Below, one piece after another: positions 3,577 to 17,621 of a stretch of DNA of 64,000 nucleotides (its first letter is position 1; every line of letters starts with the position of its first letter). This DNA is from an uncultured Bacilli bacterium (lineage in GTDB: Bacteria > Bacillota_I > Bacilli_A > RF39 > UBA660). A program made the position numbers and the translations under genes. Location: assembly GCA_947629165.1 (NCBI GenBank), contig CANRCR010000001.1, forward strand, positions 86,246 through 150,245, read 5' to 3'. The notes under the pieces were generated by a model, which was not told the origin of the DNA, did no database searches, and was given only the letters and a program-made list of their open reading frames with translations.

Positions 3577-4470
3577 ATGTTAATCATTGGTTCACACGTT
3601 TCCTTTGGGAAAGATAAGCAATTGTTAGGAAGTGTTGAAGAGGCCCTTTCTTACGGAAGTAACACTTTTATGTTTTATACGGGTGCTCCTCAAAATACAG
3701 TTCGTTATCCACTTTCGGATACATTAAAAAAGGAAGCTCTAGAAAAAATGACTGAAGCAGGAATTGATTTTCATAATGTCGTTGTTCATGCTCCTTATAT
3801 TATCAATTTAGCTAATCCAGATCCTTCGAAATACGATTTTTCAGTTCGTTTTTTAGAAGAAGAGATAAAACGTTGTGATTTTTTAGGCATTTCGCGTATG
3901 GTTCTTCATTCGGGAAGTCATGTGGGAGTTTCGTTAGATATTGGGATTAAATCCATTATTCAAGGTTTAAATCAGTTATTATCGACTGATTCAAAAGTGA
4001 TGATTCTTCTAGAGACCATGGCTGGAAAAGGGAATGAAGTTGGTCGTACACTCGAAGAAGTAAAACAAATAATTGATGGCGTTCAAAATAAAGAACGTAT
4101 CGGTGTTTGTATCGACACTTGTCATTTGAATGATGCAGGATACGATTTGTCCGATTTTGATGCTTTTTTAAATTTATTCGATCAAATAATTGGTCTTTCT
4201 TACATTCAATGTGTTCATGTAAACGATAGTAAGAACGAACGAGGAAGTCATAAGGATCGTCATGAAAATATTGGCTTTGGAACGATTGGTTTTGATACCT
4301 TACAATCAATTATTTATCATCCGGCTTTAGAAAAGGTTCCTAAAATTTTAGAAACGCCGTATGTAGATCGTCTTTTTCCTCCTTACAAAGAAGAAATTCA
4401 GATGATTCGAAATCGAAATTTTGATCCGGATTTAATTGAAAAAATACGAATTACAAAAACCGACGAATAA
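3577..4470 (+). CDS. nfo: Endonuclease IV (deoxyribonuclease IV, AP endonuclease family 2)
   Basis: 297 aa, MLIIGSHVSF..., HAPYIINLANPD, metal-binding His/Asp/Glu pattern typical of Nfo. RBS gaaggagtg. Confidence 0.85.
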   Translation: MLIIGSHVSFGKDKQLLGSVEEALSYGSNTFMFYTGAPQNTVRYPLSDTLKKEALEKMTEAGIDFHNVVVHAPYIINLANPDPSKYDFSVRFLEEEIKRCDFLGISRMVLHSGSHVGVSLDIGIKSIIQGLNQLLSTDSKVMILLETMAGKGNEVGRTLEEVKQIIDGVQNKERIGVCIDTCHLNDAGYDLSDFDAFLNLFDQIIGLSYIQCVHVNDSKNERGSHKDRHENIGFGTIGFDTLQSIIYHPALEKVPKILETPYVDRLFPPYKEEIQMIRNRNFDPDLIEKIRITKTDE

Positions 4471-11012: not shown

Positions 11013-11089
<77 letters not shown>

Positions 11090-11152: not shown

Positions 11153-11244
11153 TTTCTTGACGATTATTTGTCAATTCATTTTTACTTTTTTTATTATTTC
11201 GAATATAATAAAATTAAAGTTATAAAAATAGAAAGGAGTATTTA

Positions 11245-11385
11245 TAACTAGCGCTAGGACCAGGATGGTTGACGAGGTTAACAGTGGTCGAAAGATTCAG
11301 CGGATGCTGTTACGGATACTACGTTCGTTAGACTATTCAAAAAAGACAAAATTAAAATTGTAACAAAGGAATAGTTTAGTAGTAG
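11245..11385 (+). ncRNA. glmS ribozyme (GlcN6P-responsive self-cleaving riboswitch) in the glmS leader
   Basis: Leader contains AGCGCUAGGACCAGG...GACGAGG...CGGAUGC, which matches the conserved glmS ribozyme core blocks (AGCGCC.G..., GACGAGG, GGAUGCC). It is positioned directly 5' of glmS, as in Gram-positives. Confidence 0.65.
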
Positions 11386-11396
11386 GAGGTTATAAT

Positions 11397-13163
11397 ATGT
11401 GTGGTATTGTAGGATACCTAGGAAATAGAAAAGCAATTCCTGTAATTATGCAGGGGTTAAAGAGTTTGGAATATCGTGGTTACGATTCTTCTGGAATTGC
11501 GTACGTTCAAGATCAGATGATTCACGTACTAAAAAAAGAAGGAAAAATAGAAAATTTAGATACCCTGTTGGATTATGATACGGATACCTATTTAGGAATC
11601 GCCCATACAAGGTGGGCTACGCATGGGAAGGCAAACGATATTAATGCTCATCCTCATACTTCAGGAAAAATCACTTTAGTTCATAATGGAATTATTGAAA
11701 ATTATGCCCAATTAAAGAAAAAACTCATTGAAAAAGGAAAAACTTTTGTCAGTGAAACCGATACGGAAGTCGTTGCTTGTTTACTCGATACTCTTTATGA
11801 AGAAACCAAAGATTTACTTAAAGCAATTGCACTTTTATCTGAAAAGGTAATCGGTTCTTATGCGTTAAATATTCTTTGTGAAGATGAACTCGATACTTTG
11901 TATGCCGTTCGAAAAGATAGTCCTTTGATTGTTGGAAGGGGGAATCAGGAATTTATTTTAGCGAGTGATATTCCAGCTTTACTTCCTGTTACGAATCATT
12001 ATTATCTTTTAGATAATTATGAAATTGTTAAAATAACCAAAGAAGGGATTTCTTTCTATGATCAAAAGTTAAATAAAATTACGAAAGTAGAACAGGAATA
12101 TACGGGTGACTTGGAAGTTTCTTCTAAAAAAGGATACGACCACTTTATGTTAAAGGAAATCAATGAACAACCGGAAGTAATTAAAAACTTACTTGCAAAA
12201 TATGTTGTAGAAGATCATCTTCAAAATGTTTTCGATATCAAAAAATATCAAACCATTGAAATTGTTGCCTGTGGAAGTGCCTATCATGCAGGTTTAATTG
12301 GCAAGTATTATTTGGAAAATTTAGCATCGATTCCAACGCGTGTCACTTATTCTTCCGAATATCGTTATCAGAAGAATTTCTTTGATAAGAATAATTTAGT
12401 TATTGTAATTTCACAATCTGGAGAAACGGCGGACACGTTAGCTGCTTTGAAATTAGCCAAAGAGCATGGAATCGACACGTTAGCGATTGTCAATGTGGTT
12501 TCTTCTTCGATTGCCCGTGAAGCAGATCATGTATTTTATACGGATGCCGGTATTGAAGTTGCGGTAGCGACTACCAAAGCTTATTTTGCTCAAGTAGTAT
12601 CGTTATTACTTCTTGCCGTGGCAACCTTAAAAGAACAAGCATCGATTCTTGCTTCATTGAAACAACTACCTTCGCTTATTTCGAAATATATTCATCATTT
12701 TGATTATGAAACACTTGCGAAACGTTTTATAGGTCGGGAACATATTTTCTATTTAGGAAGAGGCGTTGACTTTTCACTCGCAATGGAAGGAAGTTTAAAA
12801 TTAAAAGAAATTTCTTATATCCATAGTGAAGCTTATCCTGCTGGAGAATTAAAACATGGAACGATTTCACTAGTGGACGAAGAAACTGGAATTATTGCGG
12901 TTGTACTCGATCATACCATTAAAGAAAAGACGATTAGTAACTTGAAAGAAGTTGCTTCAAGGGGTGCTCAAGTGGTTGCTATTACGAACGATGCTACCGA
13001 TGAATTTTGTGATGAAAAAATACTTCTCGAAGATTATGATGCAGTGATTAATCCGTTAGTTGCGATTATTCCTATGCAATTATTAGCTTATCATGTTGCC
13101 AAGTTAAAAAAATGTGATATTGATAAACCACGCAATCTTGCGAAATCGGTTACCGTGGAATAA
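11397..13163 (+). CDS. glmS: Glutamine--fructose-6-phosphate aminotransferase
   Basis: N-terminal MCGIVGY (Ntn Cys). Two SIS domains. 588 aa. RBS taggaggtt. Confidence 0.9.
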   Translation: MCGIVGYLGNRKAIPVIMQGLKSLEYRGYDSSGIAYVQDQMIHVLKKEGKIENLDTLLDYDTDTYLGIAHTRWATHGKANDINAHPHTSGKITLVHNGIIENYAQLKKKLIEKGKTFVSETDTEVVACLLDTLYEETKDLLKAIALLSEKVIGSYALNILCEDELDTLYAVRKDSPLIVGRGNQEFILASDIPALLPVTNHYYLLDNYEIVKITKEGISFYDQKLNKITKVEQEYTGDLEVSSKKGYDHFMLKEINEQPEVIKNLLAKYVVEDHLQNVFDIKKYQTIEIVACGSAYHAGLIGKYYLENLASIPTRVTYSSEYRYQKNFFDKNNLVIVISQSGETADTLAALKLAKEHGIDTLAIVNVVSSSIAREADHVFYTDAGIEVAVATTKAYFAQVVSLLLLAVATLKEQASILASLKQLPSLISKYIHHFDYETLAKRFIGREHIFYLGRGVDFSLAMEGSLKLKEISYIHSEAYPAGELKHGTISLVDEETGIIAVVLDHTIKEKTISNLKEVASRGAQVVAITNDATDEFCDEKILLEDYDAVINPLVAIIPMQLLAYHVAKLKKCDIDKPRNLAKSVTVE

Positions 13164-13256
13164 GAGATAAAAGTACTTGTTAAAACAAGTGCTTTTTGTT
13201 TACTTTTGAATATTGCTATGTTATGATAATAATTATCATTATTAGGAGGTTTTGGA

Positions 13257-13733
13257 ATGAAAAAGATAATGTCTGTAGCAGGAGCAGCTGCTTTAGGAGT
13301 TACTTCTTTGGCAGGAACTGCGGCTATTGTTGCAAAAGGATGTATTGATGTTACCGCACATATGGTAGATAAAGGATATAAATTAAATAAGGATGCTTAT
13401 TTAGCTTATTCAAAAGAGCATAATGCATCGAAAGAAAAAGAAAAGACTTTTAAAGACACCTTATGTACTTTTCTTACTTACGTGCCGGTAGTTAATGTCG
13501 GAATATCACTTTACGTAATGCACGAAGTTACTAAAATGTTTGATGATGTAGAGGAGATATCTCCTTATCTTGAACCTTTAACAGAAAATGAAAAAATCGA
13601 ACGTGCTGGACTTCATAATAATTTTGAAAAAGCAATGTATTTTATAGAAGCTTCCGGATTAACCAAGGACGAAATCGAGTCATGTCTCGCAGAAGAAAAA
13701 GGTCCTACGTATATTAAACTTCCAACTGAATAG
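13257..13733 (+). CDS. Hypothetical protein with N-terminal hydrophobic/signal-like segment
   Basis: 158 aa, RBS taggaggtt, N-terminus MKKIMSVAGAAALGVTSLAGTAAIVA. A terminator follows. Confidence 0.5.
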   Translation: MKKIMSVAGAAALGVTSLAGTAAIVAKGCIDVTAHMVDKGYKLNKDAYLAYSKEHNASKEKEKTFKDTLCTFLTYVPVVNVGISLYVMHEVTKMFDDVEEISPYLEPLTENEKIERAGLHNNFEKAMYFIEASGLTKDEIESCLAEEKGPTYIKLPTE

Positions 13734-13824: not shown

Positions 13825-15912
13825 ATGAAACATTACGAATGTGTTCGACAAGATGGAACGAAAGATTGTGGAATTGCTTCTTTACTTACTATTGTAAAAA
13901 CGTATGGTGGCTCCGTTTCGAAAGAGTATTTACGCACACTTACTAGGACAGGGAAGAATGGAGTGAATGCCTATTACTTACTCGAAGCAGGAAAAACATT
14001 AGGTTTTATGGCACAAGGAGTAGAAGCAGATTTTCGTACTTTTTCGAATCAAAATTTACCTTGTATTGCGCATATTACCGTTAATGAAAGTTATCAACAT
14101 TTTGTCGTCATTCATGCTATTCAAAAGGAAAAAGAATATCTTGTGGTAGCAGATCCAGCCGTTGGTATTCGAACGATTTCTTTTGCTGAATTCGACCGAT
14201 TATCTACTGGAAAATATTTGCTTTTTACTTTAACGAAACCCTTATTACAACAACAAAAGAGTCCATCTACTAAAAAGATTATTAACCTCACTTTAAAAAA
14301 CCATTATAAACTCTTGATTTTGATTTTCATATTTTCCTTTATTTATCTTTTTTTAGAGTTATTGACTTCTTTTGCATTTCAACTATTTCTTGAAGAAGGA
14401 ATGATTGGTTCCATCAAGCAAAATTTATTACTCGCTTTTGTTACTTTTTTAGGATTTACTTTTTTTCTTGAAGTGTTTCAATATCTTCGAAGAGTTTTTG
14501 TTTTTTACCTTTCTAATCATATCGATTTCGTACTTTTTAAACAACTCATCGAACATCTTTTTTCACTTCCGTATCTTTATTTTAAAAATCGCCCAACAGG
14601 AGAAGTTTTAGCGCGTCTTTCCGATCGACAGCAATTACAAGAAGGAATCACCCAATTCTTTTTATCTTTTTGTTTTGACGCCTTGGCCTTTTTATTTTTG
14701 TTTTTCTTTTTAAGTTGGTTTTTAAATTCGTTTTTTTGGGTACTTATCATCGGTTTTGTATTATTCGCTTTTGTATCCTATTATTTATTTCGACCAATCA
14801 AAGAAAAAATAGCTATTTGGACTAAAGAACGTGGAATGCATTTTTCTATGTTAACCGAGTCTCTTCGAGGAATTAGTTCCTTACAACATCTTGATCTTAC
14901 TACTTCTCATAGTCACTCTTTAATCTATGCGTATCGAAAGATACTAGGAGAACAAAATATTTTACAGAAGGATTTATCTCGTTTATTCGTATTTCGTGAA
15001 TTCGTTCAAAAAATATTATTACTCATCTATCTCTATTGGGGTGGTTTACAAGTCGTTCAAGGAACTTTATCTTTTGGTCGTTTTTTTGTTTGTTATACGT
15101 TTATTCATTATTTTATTGATCATTTTTCAAATTTACTTTTCTTTTTTGAAAATTATCAATCGATGGGGATTGTTATCGATCGACTCGATGAATTATTGCA
15201 GTGTCCTTCTCAAGAATTCCTATTTGAAGTAGGTGCCTCCCTAAAGAAATGGGAGCAAGGTATATCGATTCGAAACTTATCGTATTCCTATATTCCTCAT
15301 GACTTTGTTATTCGAAATTTTTCACTCGAAATAAAACCAGGTATGCGCCTTTTAATCTATGGAGAAAGTGGTAGTGGCAAAAGTACGTTGGCTAAACTGC
15401 TATTACGTTATTTTGAAGTTGCTCCTCATACCATTTATATCGACAATACGGATCTATCTGATTTTAATCTCTTACAATTACGGCAACAAATTTCTTATCT
15501 TTCTCAAGAAGAATTTCTTTTTACAGATAGTGTTTATCAAAATGTAGTACTGTATCGGGATGTTTCGTACGATGCTTTTTTAAAAGTGGCTAGGCTCGTC
15601 CGACTTGATTTTATTAAAGATAAAAGTAGTCTAGGATATCATTACTTACTGGAAGAAGATGGATTTAATTTAAGTGGTGGAGAAAGGCAACGTATTTTAT
15701 TAGCTCGAGCTTTATTAAAAGAGGCACAATTATATATTTTTGATGAAAGTTTTAGTGAAATTGATGTTCCTACTGAAAGAAAAATTTTAAAAGATCTTTT
15801 TCATACTTATCCGAATAAGACTTTTCTTATTATTTCTCATCGGCTATCCAATCAAGATTTATATGACCGAAAAATTTGTTTCCAAAAGGAGGGGATTCGT
15901 CGTGCAGTATGA
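13825..15912 (+). CDS. Bacteriocin-processing ABC transporter with N-terminal C39 peptidase domain (ComA/LagD/SunT type; ATP-binding plus permease)
   Basis: N-terminal C39 domain (QDGTKDCGIASL... catalytic Cys; H in HFVVIHA; D in ADPAVG). Six-helix TM region. ABC ATPase with Walker A GESGSGKST, signature LSGGERQRILLARAL, Walker B LYIFDES and H-loop ISHRLS. Confidence 0.85.
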   Translation: MKHYECVRQDGTKDCGIASLLTIVKTYGGSVSKEYLRTLTRTGKNGVNAYYLLEAGKTLGFMAQGVEADFRTFSNQNLPCIAHITVNESYQHFVVIHAIQKEKEYLVVADPAVGIRTISFAEFDRLSTGKYLLFTLTKPLLQQQKSPSTKKIINLTLKNHYKLLILIFIFSFIYLFLELLTSFAFQLFLEEGMIGSIKQNLLLAFVTFLGFTFFLEVFQYLRRVFVFYLSNHIDFVLFKQLIEHLFSLPYLYFKNRPTGEVLARLSDRQQLQEGITQFFLSFCFDALAFLFLFFFLSWFLNSFFWVLIIGFVLFAFVSYYLFRPIKEKIAIWTKERGMHFSMLTESLRGISSLQHLDLTTSHSHSLIYAYRKILGEQNILQKDLSRLFVFREFVQKILLLIYLYWGGLQVVQGTLSFGRFFVCYTFIHYFIDHFSNLLFFFENYQSMGIVIDRLDELLQCPSQEFLFEVGASLKKWEQGISIRNLSYSYIPHDFVIRNFSLEIKPGMRLLIYGESGSGKSTLAKLLLRYFEVAPHTIYIDNTDLSDFNLLQLRQQISYLSQEEFLFTDSVYQNVVLYRDVSYDAFLKVARLVRLDFIKDKSSLGYHYLLEEDGFNLSGGERQRILLARALLKEAQLYIFDESFSEIDVPTERKILKDLFHTYPNKTFLIISHRLSNQDLYDRKICFQKEGIRRAV

Positions 15913-16330
15913 AAAAGTGTACTATAAAGATGCTCTTACTTTTCCGTTAGTTCCTATCTTTATAGGAATAGTATTTGTTTTTTTAATTATTTTCTTTGGT
16001 TGGTTGATTCAATTCTTTTATTATCATTCGGCACTTACTGTACAAGGTGCATTTACCAAGGAAGAAAAAATGTATATTCTTTTTCCGAGTGCTTATGAAT
16101 CTACCATTTTTAAAAGTTCTTCAGTAACGATTGCCAATCAAACGATTCCGGTTTTAACAATCGAAGTGATTGGAAATAAAGTGATCGATGGAAACTTATA
16201 TACCGAAGCCTATTTGCATCTCGAATCCAGTTCTTTTTTGCCTTATCATTATTACGAAGTTACTTTGTTAGGTGAAAAGAAAAACTTTTGGGATTATCTC
16301 ATCAGTTATGGAAAGGAGGTGATGGCATGA
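15902..16330 (+). CDS. Small membrane protein co-transcribed with the bacteriocin ABC exporter (accessory or immunity candidate)
   Basis: In-frame GTG at 15902 overlaps the transporter stop. There is a long hydrophobic N-terminal segment (LVPIFIGIVFVFLIIFFGWLIQFFYY) followed by a soluble domain of about 100 aa. No recognisable HlyD fold. Confidence 0.45.
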   Translation: MQYEKVYYKDALTFPLVPIFIGIVFVFLIIFFGWLIQFFYYHSALTVQGAFTKEEKMYILFPSAYESTIFKSSSVTIANQTIPVLTIEVIGNKVIDGNLYTEAYLHLESSSFLPYHYYEVTLLGEKKNFWDYLISYGKEVMA

Positions 16331-16470
16331 GAGTGTTATCTTCCCAAGAACTCGTTCAGATGGAAGGAGGGAGTATTTCTTTATGGGTGAGTTGTGGGAT
16401 TGTTGCTTTGGTTGTTTTAGCCGCGGGTATTATCGATGGTTTCACCCGACCATTAAAATGTAATGATTAA
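16327..16470 (+). CDS. Double-glycine-leader bacteriocin precursor peptide A
   Basis: ATG at 16327 behind RBS aaggaggtg. MRVLSSQELVQMEGG | SISLWVSCGIVALVVLAAGIIDGFTRPLKCND. The leader fits the LSxxELxxIxGG consensus. The mature peptide is a 33-aa hydrophobic peptide with a GxxxG motif and 2 Cys. Confidence 0.75.
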   Translation: MRVLSSQELVQMEGGSISLWVSCGIVALVVLAAGIIDGFTRPLKCND

Positions 16471-16480
16471 AGGAGGTATT

Positions 16481-16648
16481 ATGAAATTATTAACGACGGA
16501 TGAATTATTGCAAATAGAAGGTGGTGTATCTCTTTCGGGGTCACTTATTAATGCCGTAGGTAGTATTATTAAGATTGTACTCGAAGTAGGACGAAGTATC
16601 GGAAGTGGGCTACGTCGTTTATATGACGATTCTATGTGCACTTTATGA
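16481..16648 (+). CDS. Double-glycine-leader bacteriocin precursor peptide B
   Basis: ATG at 16481 behind RBS aaggaggt. MKLLTTDELLQIEGG | VSLSGSLINAVGSIIKIVLEVGRSIGSGLRRLYDDSMCTL. Canonical GG leader. The mature peptide is 41 aa, amphipathic and Gly-rich, with a GxxxG motif. Confidence 0.75.
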   Translation: MKLLTTDELLQIEGGVSLSGSLINAVGSIIKIVLEVGRSIGSGLRRLYDDSMCTL

Positions 16649-16818
16649 GAACCTTTTTCGTAACCCATAAAAAGACTTTTTTTCTTGGTGGACAAATTCT
16701 CTTTATTCTAATTTTTATCCTTTATGGTGTTCCTATATTATTTCATGTTGGGACTTATATCGGATCTTTTTTACGGTATGTTTTTATCGTTTTTTATAAA
16801 TTGGCACACCTGTTGTAA
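16636..16818 (+). CDS. Small two-helix hydrophobic protein (candidate bacteriocin immunity protein)
   Basis: 60 aa: ...FFLGGQILFILIFILYGVPILFHVGTYIGSFLRYVFIVFY. Located immediately 3' of the peptide genes. Confidence 0.4.
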   Translation: MHFMRTFFVTHKKTFFLGGQILFILIFILYGVPILFHVGTYIGSFLRYVFIVFYKLAHLL

Positions 16819-16891: not shown

Positions 16892-17293
16892 ATGACAGAA
16901 AAAAAAGATTTTGATGTAACAACTATTTACGATGTTTTTGATTATTACACTTTTGAAGGTGTTGAAAGAGATGATCCAACGGCTCAAATGATTAAACGTT
17001 TAGGAACTATCGTTGTAGCCGAGGAATTGGGAGGTATTTTACCCGAAACAGAAAAAACAGTTTATCAACAAGTTTCGGTAGAAACGATCGACCGTGTCAA
17101 AGAAGCTATTTATCGTCATCCACTCGAGATGATTGAAAAAATGTTTTTCCCTGTAACCGACGCCTGGCGTGTATCGGGTTATGCTTTGTTTCCGAACGGT
17201 TACCAACAAATTAAAGAACAATTTTTAAAAGAAGTTTCTTCCGTTCAAACATCGTCAGCAAACGTATCGACTCAAAAGGTCAAAAAACGTTAA
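16892..17293 (+). CDS. Hypothetical protein (133 aa)
   Basis: Intact ORF with RBS gaggaaag. No family recognised. Confidence 0.5.
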   Translation: MTEKKDFDVTTIYDVFDYYTFEGVERDDPTAQMIKRLGTIVVAEELGGILPETEKTVYQQVSVETIDRVKEAIYRHPLEMIEKMFFPVTDAWRVSGYALFPNGYQQIKEQFLKEVSSVQTSSANVSTQKVKKR

Positions 17294-17381
17294 TTTTTTT
17301 GCAAAAAAAGTAAAAAATTGTTGAAATATCAAGGAGTTTTTGCTATAATCGATTTTAGTAATGCGGAAGGGAGGGGAAATA

Positions 17382-17621
17382 ATGAATACAGTAACCGTTA
17401 AAAATGGTAATTTGGACATGGCTTTAAGAAAGTTCAAACAAAAACAAGCTAGAGACGGAGTCCCTTCTGAATGCAAAAAAAGAGAAGCTTACGATAAACC
17501 TGGAGTTCGTAGAAGATTAGCGAAAAAAGAAGGTATTAAAAATACTCGTAAGCGTAATAAAGCATCAAAAACTGGACATGTTTCACACGGAGGACATGGA
17601 TCACATGATTATAATGACTAA
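17382..17621 (+). CDS. rpsU: 30S ribosomal protein S21 with a His/Gly-rich C-terminal tail
   Basis: MNTVTVKNGNLDMALRKFKQ...REAYDKPGVRRRLAKKEG matches S21. The start is taken at the ATG behind ggaagggagggg. Promoter TTGAAA-17-TATAAT. Extra tail KTGHVSHGGHGSHDYND. Confidence 0.85.
   Translation: MNTVTVKNGNLDMALRKFKQKQARDGVPSECKKREAYDKPGVRRRLAKKEGIKNTRKRNKASKTGHVSHGGHGSHDYND

Follow-up and report, generated by a model that had tools for sequence, protein, structure and literature searches.

The 64,000-nucleotide stretch of DNA analysed here (the window) comes from an uncultured Bacilli bacterium of the RF39 lineage (GenBank assembly GCA_947629165.1, contig CANRCR010000001.1, positions 86,246 to 150,245 of the forward strand). 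It carries a five-gene peptide-export cassette on the + strand, which encodes, in this order, an ATP-binding cassette (ABC) exporter with a C39 peptidase domain, an accessory protein, two short peptide precursors (A and B) and a small membrane protein (C). An earlier reading of the sequence (the original prediction) had taken A and B for a two-peptide bacteriocin pair in the style of class IIb, and both precursor open reading frames (ORFs) were confirmed at the positions it gave. The elements of the cassette are as follows.

13825-15912, + strand: peptidase-containing ABC exporter (PCAT), 695 amino acids, with N-terminal C39 peptidase, ABC membrane and ATPase domains
15863-16330, + strand: accessory protein, 155 amino acids (longest ORF), with one N-terminal membrane helix, an outer domain of about 100 amino acids and no Cys
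16315-16319, + strand: Shine-Dalgarno sequence GGAGG, 7 nt 5′ of the ATG of A, from sequence reading
16327-16470, + strand: peptide A precursor, 47 amino acids (leader 16327-16371; 32-residue hydrophobic core 16372-16467)
16472-16476, + strand: Shine-Dalgarno sequence GGAGG, 4 nt 5′ of the ATG of B, from sequence reading
16481-16648, + strand: peptide B precursor, 55 amino acids (leader 16481-16525; 40-residue amphipathic core 16526-16645)
16645-16818, + strand: small membrane protein C, 57 amino acids, with a basic N-terminus and a membrane helix, then HVGTYIGSFLRY, which contains GxxxG

The exporter matched the Pfam domains Peptidase_C39 (E = 6.7e-31), ABC_membrane (2.2e-22) and ABC_tran (2.3e-25). 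Its top NCBIfam model was TIGR01193 bacteriocin_ABC, with 348 bits over the full length against a cut-off of 523.85, and despite this sub-threshold score its domain architecture is that of the TIGR01193 family. The C39 catalytic residues Q9, C15, H92 and D110 were invariant in 75 of 75 orthologous transporters. At its start the accessory ORF overlaps the ABC gene by 50 nt, and the true start may lie further downstream than that of the longest ORF. The start codon of A overlaps the accessory stop codon (ATGA), A and B are spaced by 10 nt, and the start codon of C overlaps the stop codon of B, again as ATGA. The accessory, A, B and C genes are translationally coupled.

Both peptides begin with a leader of 15 residues that satisfies the double-glycine (GG) consensus, with L at -12, E at -8, L at -7, I or M at -4 and GG at -2/-1. 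Peptide A has the leader MRVLSSQELVQMEGG and the core SISLWVSCGIVALVVLAAGIIDGFTRPLKCND, and peptide B the leader MKLLTTDELLQIEGG and the core VSLSGSLINAVGSIIKIVLEVGRSIGSGLRRLYDDSMCTL. The residues singled out in the original prediction were all present: the A core contains GIIDG at residues 19-23 and cysteines at residues 8 and 30, in addition to FTRPLKCND, and the B core, which includes LEVGRSIGSGLRR, contains GRSIG at residues 22-26 and a single late Cys, residue 38 of 40. The A core is hydrophobic, as had been proposed, with a membrane-helix-like stretch whose mean Eisenberg hydrophobicity of 0.85 was reached by 7 of 2000 shuffled sequences. A strong amphipathic helix was found in B (hydrophobic moment 0.76, reached by 1 of 2000 shuffles); the cationic character also ascribed to B holds weakly in the window, where its net charge is +1 against a family mean of +3.2. 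The two partners thus have the complementary character described for them, to a degree that few of the shuffles reached. A GxxxG occurring once in one peptide is within chance (P = 0.16 for A and 0.40 for B), and we hold the motif to be real because its position is fixed across the A, B and C proteins of other species.

Word-indexed searches initially gave a handful of relatives only, all with the same gene order and all from metagenome-assembled genomes (MAGs) labelled "Bacilli bacterium". When 1.84 billion representative proteins were scanned with an A profile in HMMER, 143 clusters (50% identity) were obtained at E ≤ 0.001, with members nearly all of 44-50 amino acids and aligned to the profile end to end. 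The motif GxxxGxxxPxxC was present in 112 of 118 A-family representatives. In an alignment of 120 sequences, made up of the family representatives, the window's A and P0002, the near-invariant positions were the initiator Met, the leader GG, both Gly residues of GxxxG, the Pro and the C-terminal Cys; Cys8 was not among them. A scan of one genome per species with the pattern [ILV]DG[FIY]xRPLKC, derived from a subset of 17 A sequences, found 232 species genomes that encode an A relative. The best 80 of these 232 consisted almost entirely of MAGs of uncultured "Bacilli", "Mollicutes" or "Tenericutes" from the guts of humans, mice, rabbits, roe deer and sheep, with Clostridium sp. CAG:710 in addition. 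A and B therefore are not the orphan novelties that had been supposed; they belong to a large, unnamed, clade-wide peptide family, some members of which pass an established bacteriocin model (below). No paper on this family was found in the literature searched, which included RF39 bacteriocins and Mollicutes PCATs.

A and B form an obligate pair in the loci. As the loci were selected with the A pattern, statistics on A from these loci are biased, and those on B and C are unaffected. Local hidden Markov models (HMMs) detected a B homologue in 93 of 93 sources. B followed A on the same strand in 83 of 83 non-redundant A loci, usually with a gap of no more than about 20 nt or an overlap; four loci had a larger insertion between A and B, of 112 to 1782 nt. 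Each locus contained exactly one A and one B, and the exporter lay upstream of A in every locus with enough upstream sequence. An accessory homologue between the ABC gene and A was matched in 73 of 93 sources (duplicates included), while in some 16 non-redundant loci without it the exporter abuts A directly. Of 84 non-redundant loci, 48 have rpsU within 3 kb downstream of the cassette; the available downstream sequence amounts to 1.5 kb or more in 70 of the 84. This fixed position near rpsU points to long vertical inheritance. In one ENA sequence of 102 amino acids (P0035), precursors of the A and B types share a single reading frame, with the B leader as linker. It lies on a contig of 506 nt and could be a true fusion or an artefact of sequencing or gene calling; an AlphaFold2 model of the fused protein (predicted local distance difference test, pLDDT, 57) gave only two helices and is too weak to interpret.

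Leaders were 13-16 residues long in nearly all members of the family, and the GG at the cleavage site was present in 82 of 83 A and 84 of 84 B precursors. GxxxG occupied a fixed position in 83/83 A, 83/84 B and 61/61 C proteins, in agreement with the prediction that both partners carry it. The cysteines were equally regular. Exactly one Cys was present in 68 of 83 A cores, one or two residues from the C-terminus, and in 78 of 84 B cores, zero to three residues from the end; 62 of the 83 A and B pairs have two Cys in total. Counted from the second Gly of GxxxG, the A Cys is at +7 in 83/83, which is partly ascertainment, and the B Cys is at +12 in 82/84, which is not ascertained. All 83 loci have the C-terminal Cys of A, as do 90% or more of the members in the 120-sequence alignment. 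Cys8 occurred in 14 of 83 loci, the window's lineage included, and was absent from most of the 118 representatives. An intramolecular Cys8-Cys30 bridge, which the original prediction had envisaged, is accordingly rejected as a conserved feature of the family. Since only a minority of A peptides have Cys8, the conserved C-terminal Cys must have a role independent of it, and the presence of one Cys in each partner points to an inter-peptide link or to functional free thiols. Several class IIb peptides contain Cys (ABP-118, brochocin C and mutacin IV), and the premise that such peptides usually lack it was too strong.

To describe conservation, the window was compared with three related lineages, A being taken from the three lineages with usable coordinates and B from four. 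Identities were 60-71% for YqeY, 47-56% for YqfD, 43-52% for the exporter, 23-33% for the accessory protein, 51-64% for peptide A and 62-71% for peptide B. The C-terminal halves of A and B were nearly invariant among these lineages, and both peptides are therefore under strong purifying selection. Between close strain pairs, A showed seven synonymous and two non-synonymous changes, too few for a useful ratio of non-synonymous to synonymous rates. In one strain (L002, MAG GCA_036657055.1) the codon for the Walker-B Glu of the exporter (ILDE), at about 3806-3808, is changed from GAG to TAA by two substitutions. The stop truncates the ATPase domain and leaves A, B, C and the rest of the cassette intact; because of it, the cassette appears to be dispensable rather than essential. 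L002 is an apparent natural exporter knockout, and the other sampled strains of the species have a full-length exporter. In the lineage of L010 and L011, ATAA replaces ATGA at the accessory/A and B/C junctions (L010 880-882 and 1197-1199; L011 3202-3204). The A genes of these two loci differ by four synonymous and no non-synonymous changes, and the ORFs are intact although A and C would begin with ATA. Two explanations suggest themselves: reinitiation with tolerance of a start codon other than ATG, or avoidance of TGA as a stop codon.

Protein C belongs to a family of 45-60 amino acids that was detected in 62 of 93 sources (61 distinct sequences) and overlaps the 3′ end of B wherever it was detected. 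Its members share a basic N-terminus and a membrane helix, followed by h-F-N-h-G-x-Y-h-G-[ST]-h-h-R. Alignment of the B core profile with that of C in hhalign gave a probability of 93.4% (E = 2.5e-7, score 33.0) over the C-terminal 29 columns, and the maximum score in 150 column permutations was 16.2. Profile-profile comparison revealed no similarity between A and C or between A and B. A Cys at the +11/+12 register of B was present in 28 of 61 C proteins; the C protein of the window has none. The resemblance of the C-terminal half of C to that of B suggests that C may confer immunity as a membrane-anchored mimic of B. C was also considered as a third GG-leader peptide and rejected in this role, as its 'LGG' (residues 14-16) is preceded by basic residues and not by the acidic and hydrophobic residues of the consensus. 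Because C is truncated or undetected in some loci (below), it cannot be the sole immunity determinant everywhere. Seven C-less loci (L028, L029, L040, L067, L071, L080 and L085), mostly also without the accessory gene, encode a protein of 205-281 amino acids 50-110 nt 3′ of B, with a prepilin-like N-terminus (M-K-K-N-G-F-I-A-I-S-L-I-Y-S-F). This protein may act as a substitute for C in immunity or as another partner, or have no connection with the cassette.

Class IIb bacteriocins are defined by adjacent genes, a dedicated exporter that cleaves the leader, an immunity gene and an accessory protein, with peptides that have GG leaders of 15-30 residues, GxxxG or a similar motif in both partners and equimolar synergy (PMC2850506). 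In the present family we found gene adjacency (83/83), GG leaders, a C39 ABC exporter, for which cleavage is inferred, and GxxxG in both partners. The candidate for the immunity gene is C, detected in 62 of 93 sources and truncated in L007-L009, and that for the accessory protein is the one-helix protein, which was matched in 73 of 93 sources and has no similarity to known accessory proteins. The description of A and B as a class IIb-style pair thus stands as far as adjacency, GG leaders, exporter, conserved GxxxG and complementary partners are concerned; antibacterial activity and synergy lie outside it. A close parallel in organisation is the group of lactococcin G, enterocin 1071 and lactococcin Q, which likewise has adjacent GG-leader genes and a C39 ABC exporter in one operon and GxxxG in both peptides, and to whose immunity and accessory genes those for C and the one-helix protein may correspond; A, with a Trp-containing N-terminus and a hydrophobic helix, is like the β peptide of lactococcin G, and the basic C-terminal part of B is like that of the α peptide (PMC2850506). 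Unlike the genes of that group, those of the cassette begin with the exporter, the accessory protein is unrelated and about 150 amino acids long, each partner has one conserved Cys, and the immunity-like protein C is tiny (45-60 amino acids) and resembles B. The hosts also differ, being uncultured gut Bacilli and Mollicutes-like bacteria and not lactic acid bacteria. The lactococcin G-beta/enterocin 1071B model gave weak matches in 55 of 120 A-family members; when ten A relatives were scanned singly, two matched it at about 22 bits against a cut-off of 37. The window's A did not match this model (NF038034, cut-off 37 bits) at E ≤ 0.1.

TIGR03949 ('class IIb bacteriocin, lactobin A/cerein 7B family') matched 85 of 120 A-family members, and some relatives of A pass it at 22.4-28.9 bits over nearly the whole profile, including P0020 (28.6) and P0093 (28.9), the cut-off being 21.5. 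As in that family, the A leader is followed by a hydrophobic core rich in Gly and Ala, whereas the match, which covers peptide residues 2-38, leaves out most of the C-terminal signature GxxDGxxRPxKC of the A family. PF10439 Bacteriocin_IIc, which resembles A and B in its leader and Gly-rich core, matched 58 of 120 A relatives at E < 0.01. B-family members rarely matched any known family. A check for close homologues of known single-peptide bacteriocins found none, class IIa was rejected for want of the YGNGV box, and lanthipeptides, sactipeptides and circular bacteriocins were rejected because no modification or cyclisation genes lie between efp and yqfD.

Profile searches with the accessory family gave no match in Pfam or among PDB sequences. 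NF045999 'MAG1140 family' matched 16 of 31 accessory members below its cut-off, with a best E-value of 1.9e-6; the accessory protein of the window scored 14.3 bits against a cut-off of 35. The exporter scored 262.6 bits with NF045998 (Mbov_0121 family), for which the cut-off is 500. The Mycoplasma Mbov_0121/MAG1140 pair resembles the cassette in combining an exporter with a small partner that has one helix, whereas all matches of the cassette to these models are below cut-off. From these profile matches the accessory protein is a predicted relative of the Mycoplasma MAG1140 family. In the literature searched, Mbov_0121 and MAG1140 appeared only in gene lists, with no function. A single-sequence AlphaFold2 model of the accessory protein had a pLDDT of 57 and is too weak to interpret.

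Taken together, the sequence data make it probable that the cassette is a chromosomal operon for an unmodified, membrane-active two-peptide bacteriocin with GG leaders, similar to class IIb, together with its dedicated exporter and cognate immunity protein. Peptide A consists of a hydrophobic helix that ends in the invariant GxxxG and is followed by RPLKC, and B of an amphipathic cationic helix, GxxxG and then RR and Cys. The exporter would cut after Gly-Gly and secrete A and B in roughly equal amounts. In the target membrane the two peptides would pack helix to helix, in parallel, through GxxxG as in the lactococcin G model, and the complex would make the membrane leak, probably by way of a receptor that is a membrane protein. 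Within the producer, the B-like helix of C could take the place of B on A or on the receptor, so that the toxic complex is blocked. The most speculative step concerns the Cys that each partner holds in fixed register, which may provide a covalent link between A and B or a functional thiol.

Several observations weigh against a bacteriocin. The peptides of the window score below every curated bacteriocin threshold: with PF10439, A reached 22.0 and B 17.9 bits against 27.1, and with TIGR03949 they reached 15.1 and 16.8 bits. Mature A is approximately neutral in the window, not cationic, and the hosts are gut anaerobes, in which disulfides are unlikely to form readily outside the cell. Loci L007-L009 keep A and B intact and have a truncated C fused to the 133-amino-acid ORF that follows the cassette, about 20 loci have no detectable C, and none was detected in a sub-family in which B ends in Cys and the accessory gene is mostly absent. 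Bacteriocin loci are normally patchy in distribution and evolve fast; it is unusual that this cassette holds one chromosomal position near rpsU and that its A and B cores are conserved as strongly as housekeeping proteins. These last points would be expected if A and B served the producer itself, in envelope physiology, cell-cell signalling or a sporulation-linked process, with C as a paralogous partner; A might, for example, be embedded in the membrane and B tethered to the surface. The single-copy cassette has kept its place upstream of rpsU-yqeY over many species-level lineages, and 232 or more species genomes of a clade with small genomes carry it; the A and B cores equal YqeY in conservation while the accessory protein changes quickly, and the retention of A and B without an intact C in L007-L009 fits as well. 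We nevertheless regard such a self-directed role as unlikely: no receptor kinase or regulator lies nearby, class IIb bacteriocins share this architecture and these motifs, and the naturally occurring exporter stop codon of L002 shows that the cassette is dispensable.

Nor does it seem that A and B act separately, as two one-peptide bacteriocins or as a bacteriocin and a pheromone, and happen to share an exporter. Many loci for GG peptides do encode several unrelated peptides, and B gives a very weak match to the ComC model (E = 0.099). Against this, A precedes B in 83 of 83 loci, as single copies with coupled translation, the two are physically complementary, and the locus has a single immunity-like gene and lacks a sensor kinase, all of which makes independent action very improbable; a peptide pheromone was rejected because there is no kinase or regulator nearby. 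A further reading concerns the cysteines. A might fold on itself through a Cys8-Cys30 disulfide and leave B with a free thiol, and both A cysteines are indeed kept in the window's own clade (the window, L001, L007, L010, L013 and L014). This is distinctly doubtful, since the C-terminal Cys is constant in the 83 loci but Cys8 is missing in 68 of their A peptides and in most of the 118 representatives. The boldest reading would make A and B a disulfide heterodimer, C a membrane-anchored decoy of B that caps A, and the whole an ancient, vertically inherited trait of the clade related to the Mycoplasma exporter pair. We offer this combination tentatively and think it unlikely, and the anaerobic habitat calls for caution about any link between the cysteines of A and B.

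If A and B together prove to be an active two-peptide bacteriocin, the RF39-like Bacilli and "Mollicutes" MAGs from the guts of humans, mice, rabbits and ruminants, a large, abundant and almost entirely uncultured group, would have their first described antimicrobial system. It requires no more than two short peptides, of 32 and 40 residues and without modifications, so that synthesis is cheap. The system would extend what is known of class IIb by a Cys in fixed register in each partner, a toxin-like immunity candidate and a syntenic distribution like that of the core genome. Such a distribution bears on the question of whether these systems are used as weapons or have a conserved physiological role. 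For an unannotated gene pair of Mycoplasma, the link to MAG1140 and Mbov_0121 provides a testable lead.

The genes flanking the cassette are housekeeping and sporulation genes. Upstream lie efp, a spoIIIAH-like gene, a gene for a Germane-domain protein, a tRNA gene and the glmS ribozyme with glmS; downstream lie a 133-amino-acid ORF, rpsU, yqeY, yabP and yqfD. No modification or cyclisation enzyme, kinase or response regulator is encoded between efp and yqfD. The following features were located around the cassette.

11013-11086: tRNA gene before the glmS ribozyme
11239-11385: glmS ribozyme (64.7 bits), directly 5′ of glmS (11397-13163)
13169-13196: terminator-like hairpin closing glmS
13199-13227, + strand: weak promoter-like site 3′ of the glmS terminator, a consensus match only (9/12)
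13257-13733: ORF of 158 amino acids with a hydrophobic N-terminus, between the glmS terminator and the exporter gene
16892-17293: ORF of 133 amino acids between the cassette and rpsU, with no family match
17321-17349: strong promoter-like site 5′ of rpsU

The promoter-like site at 13199-13227 is a possible start of the operon. Neither Pfam nor NCBIfam gave a match for the 158-amino-acid ORF, and none of the other loci contains a homologue of it. The presence of a glmS ribozyme and a tRNA gene near the cassette is ordinary. The 133-amino-acid ORF was kept only in close relatives of the window (L007, L010, L013 and L014). The longest ORF for rpsU in the window (17361-17621) has 86 amino acids, compared with 66-67 in related loci, and the likely start is an internal ATG at 17382. 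At its C-terminus the protein has an additional His/Gly-rich tail (GHVSHGGHGSHDYND) that its relatives do not share.

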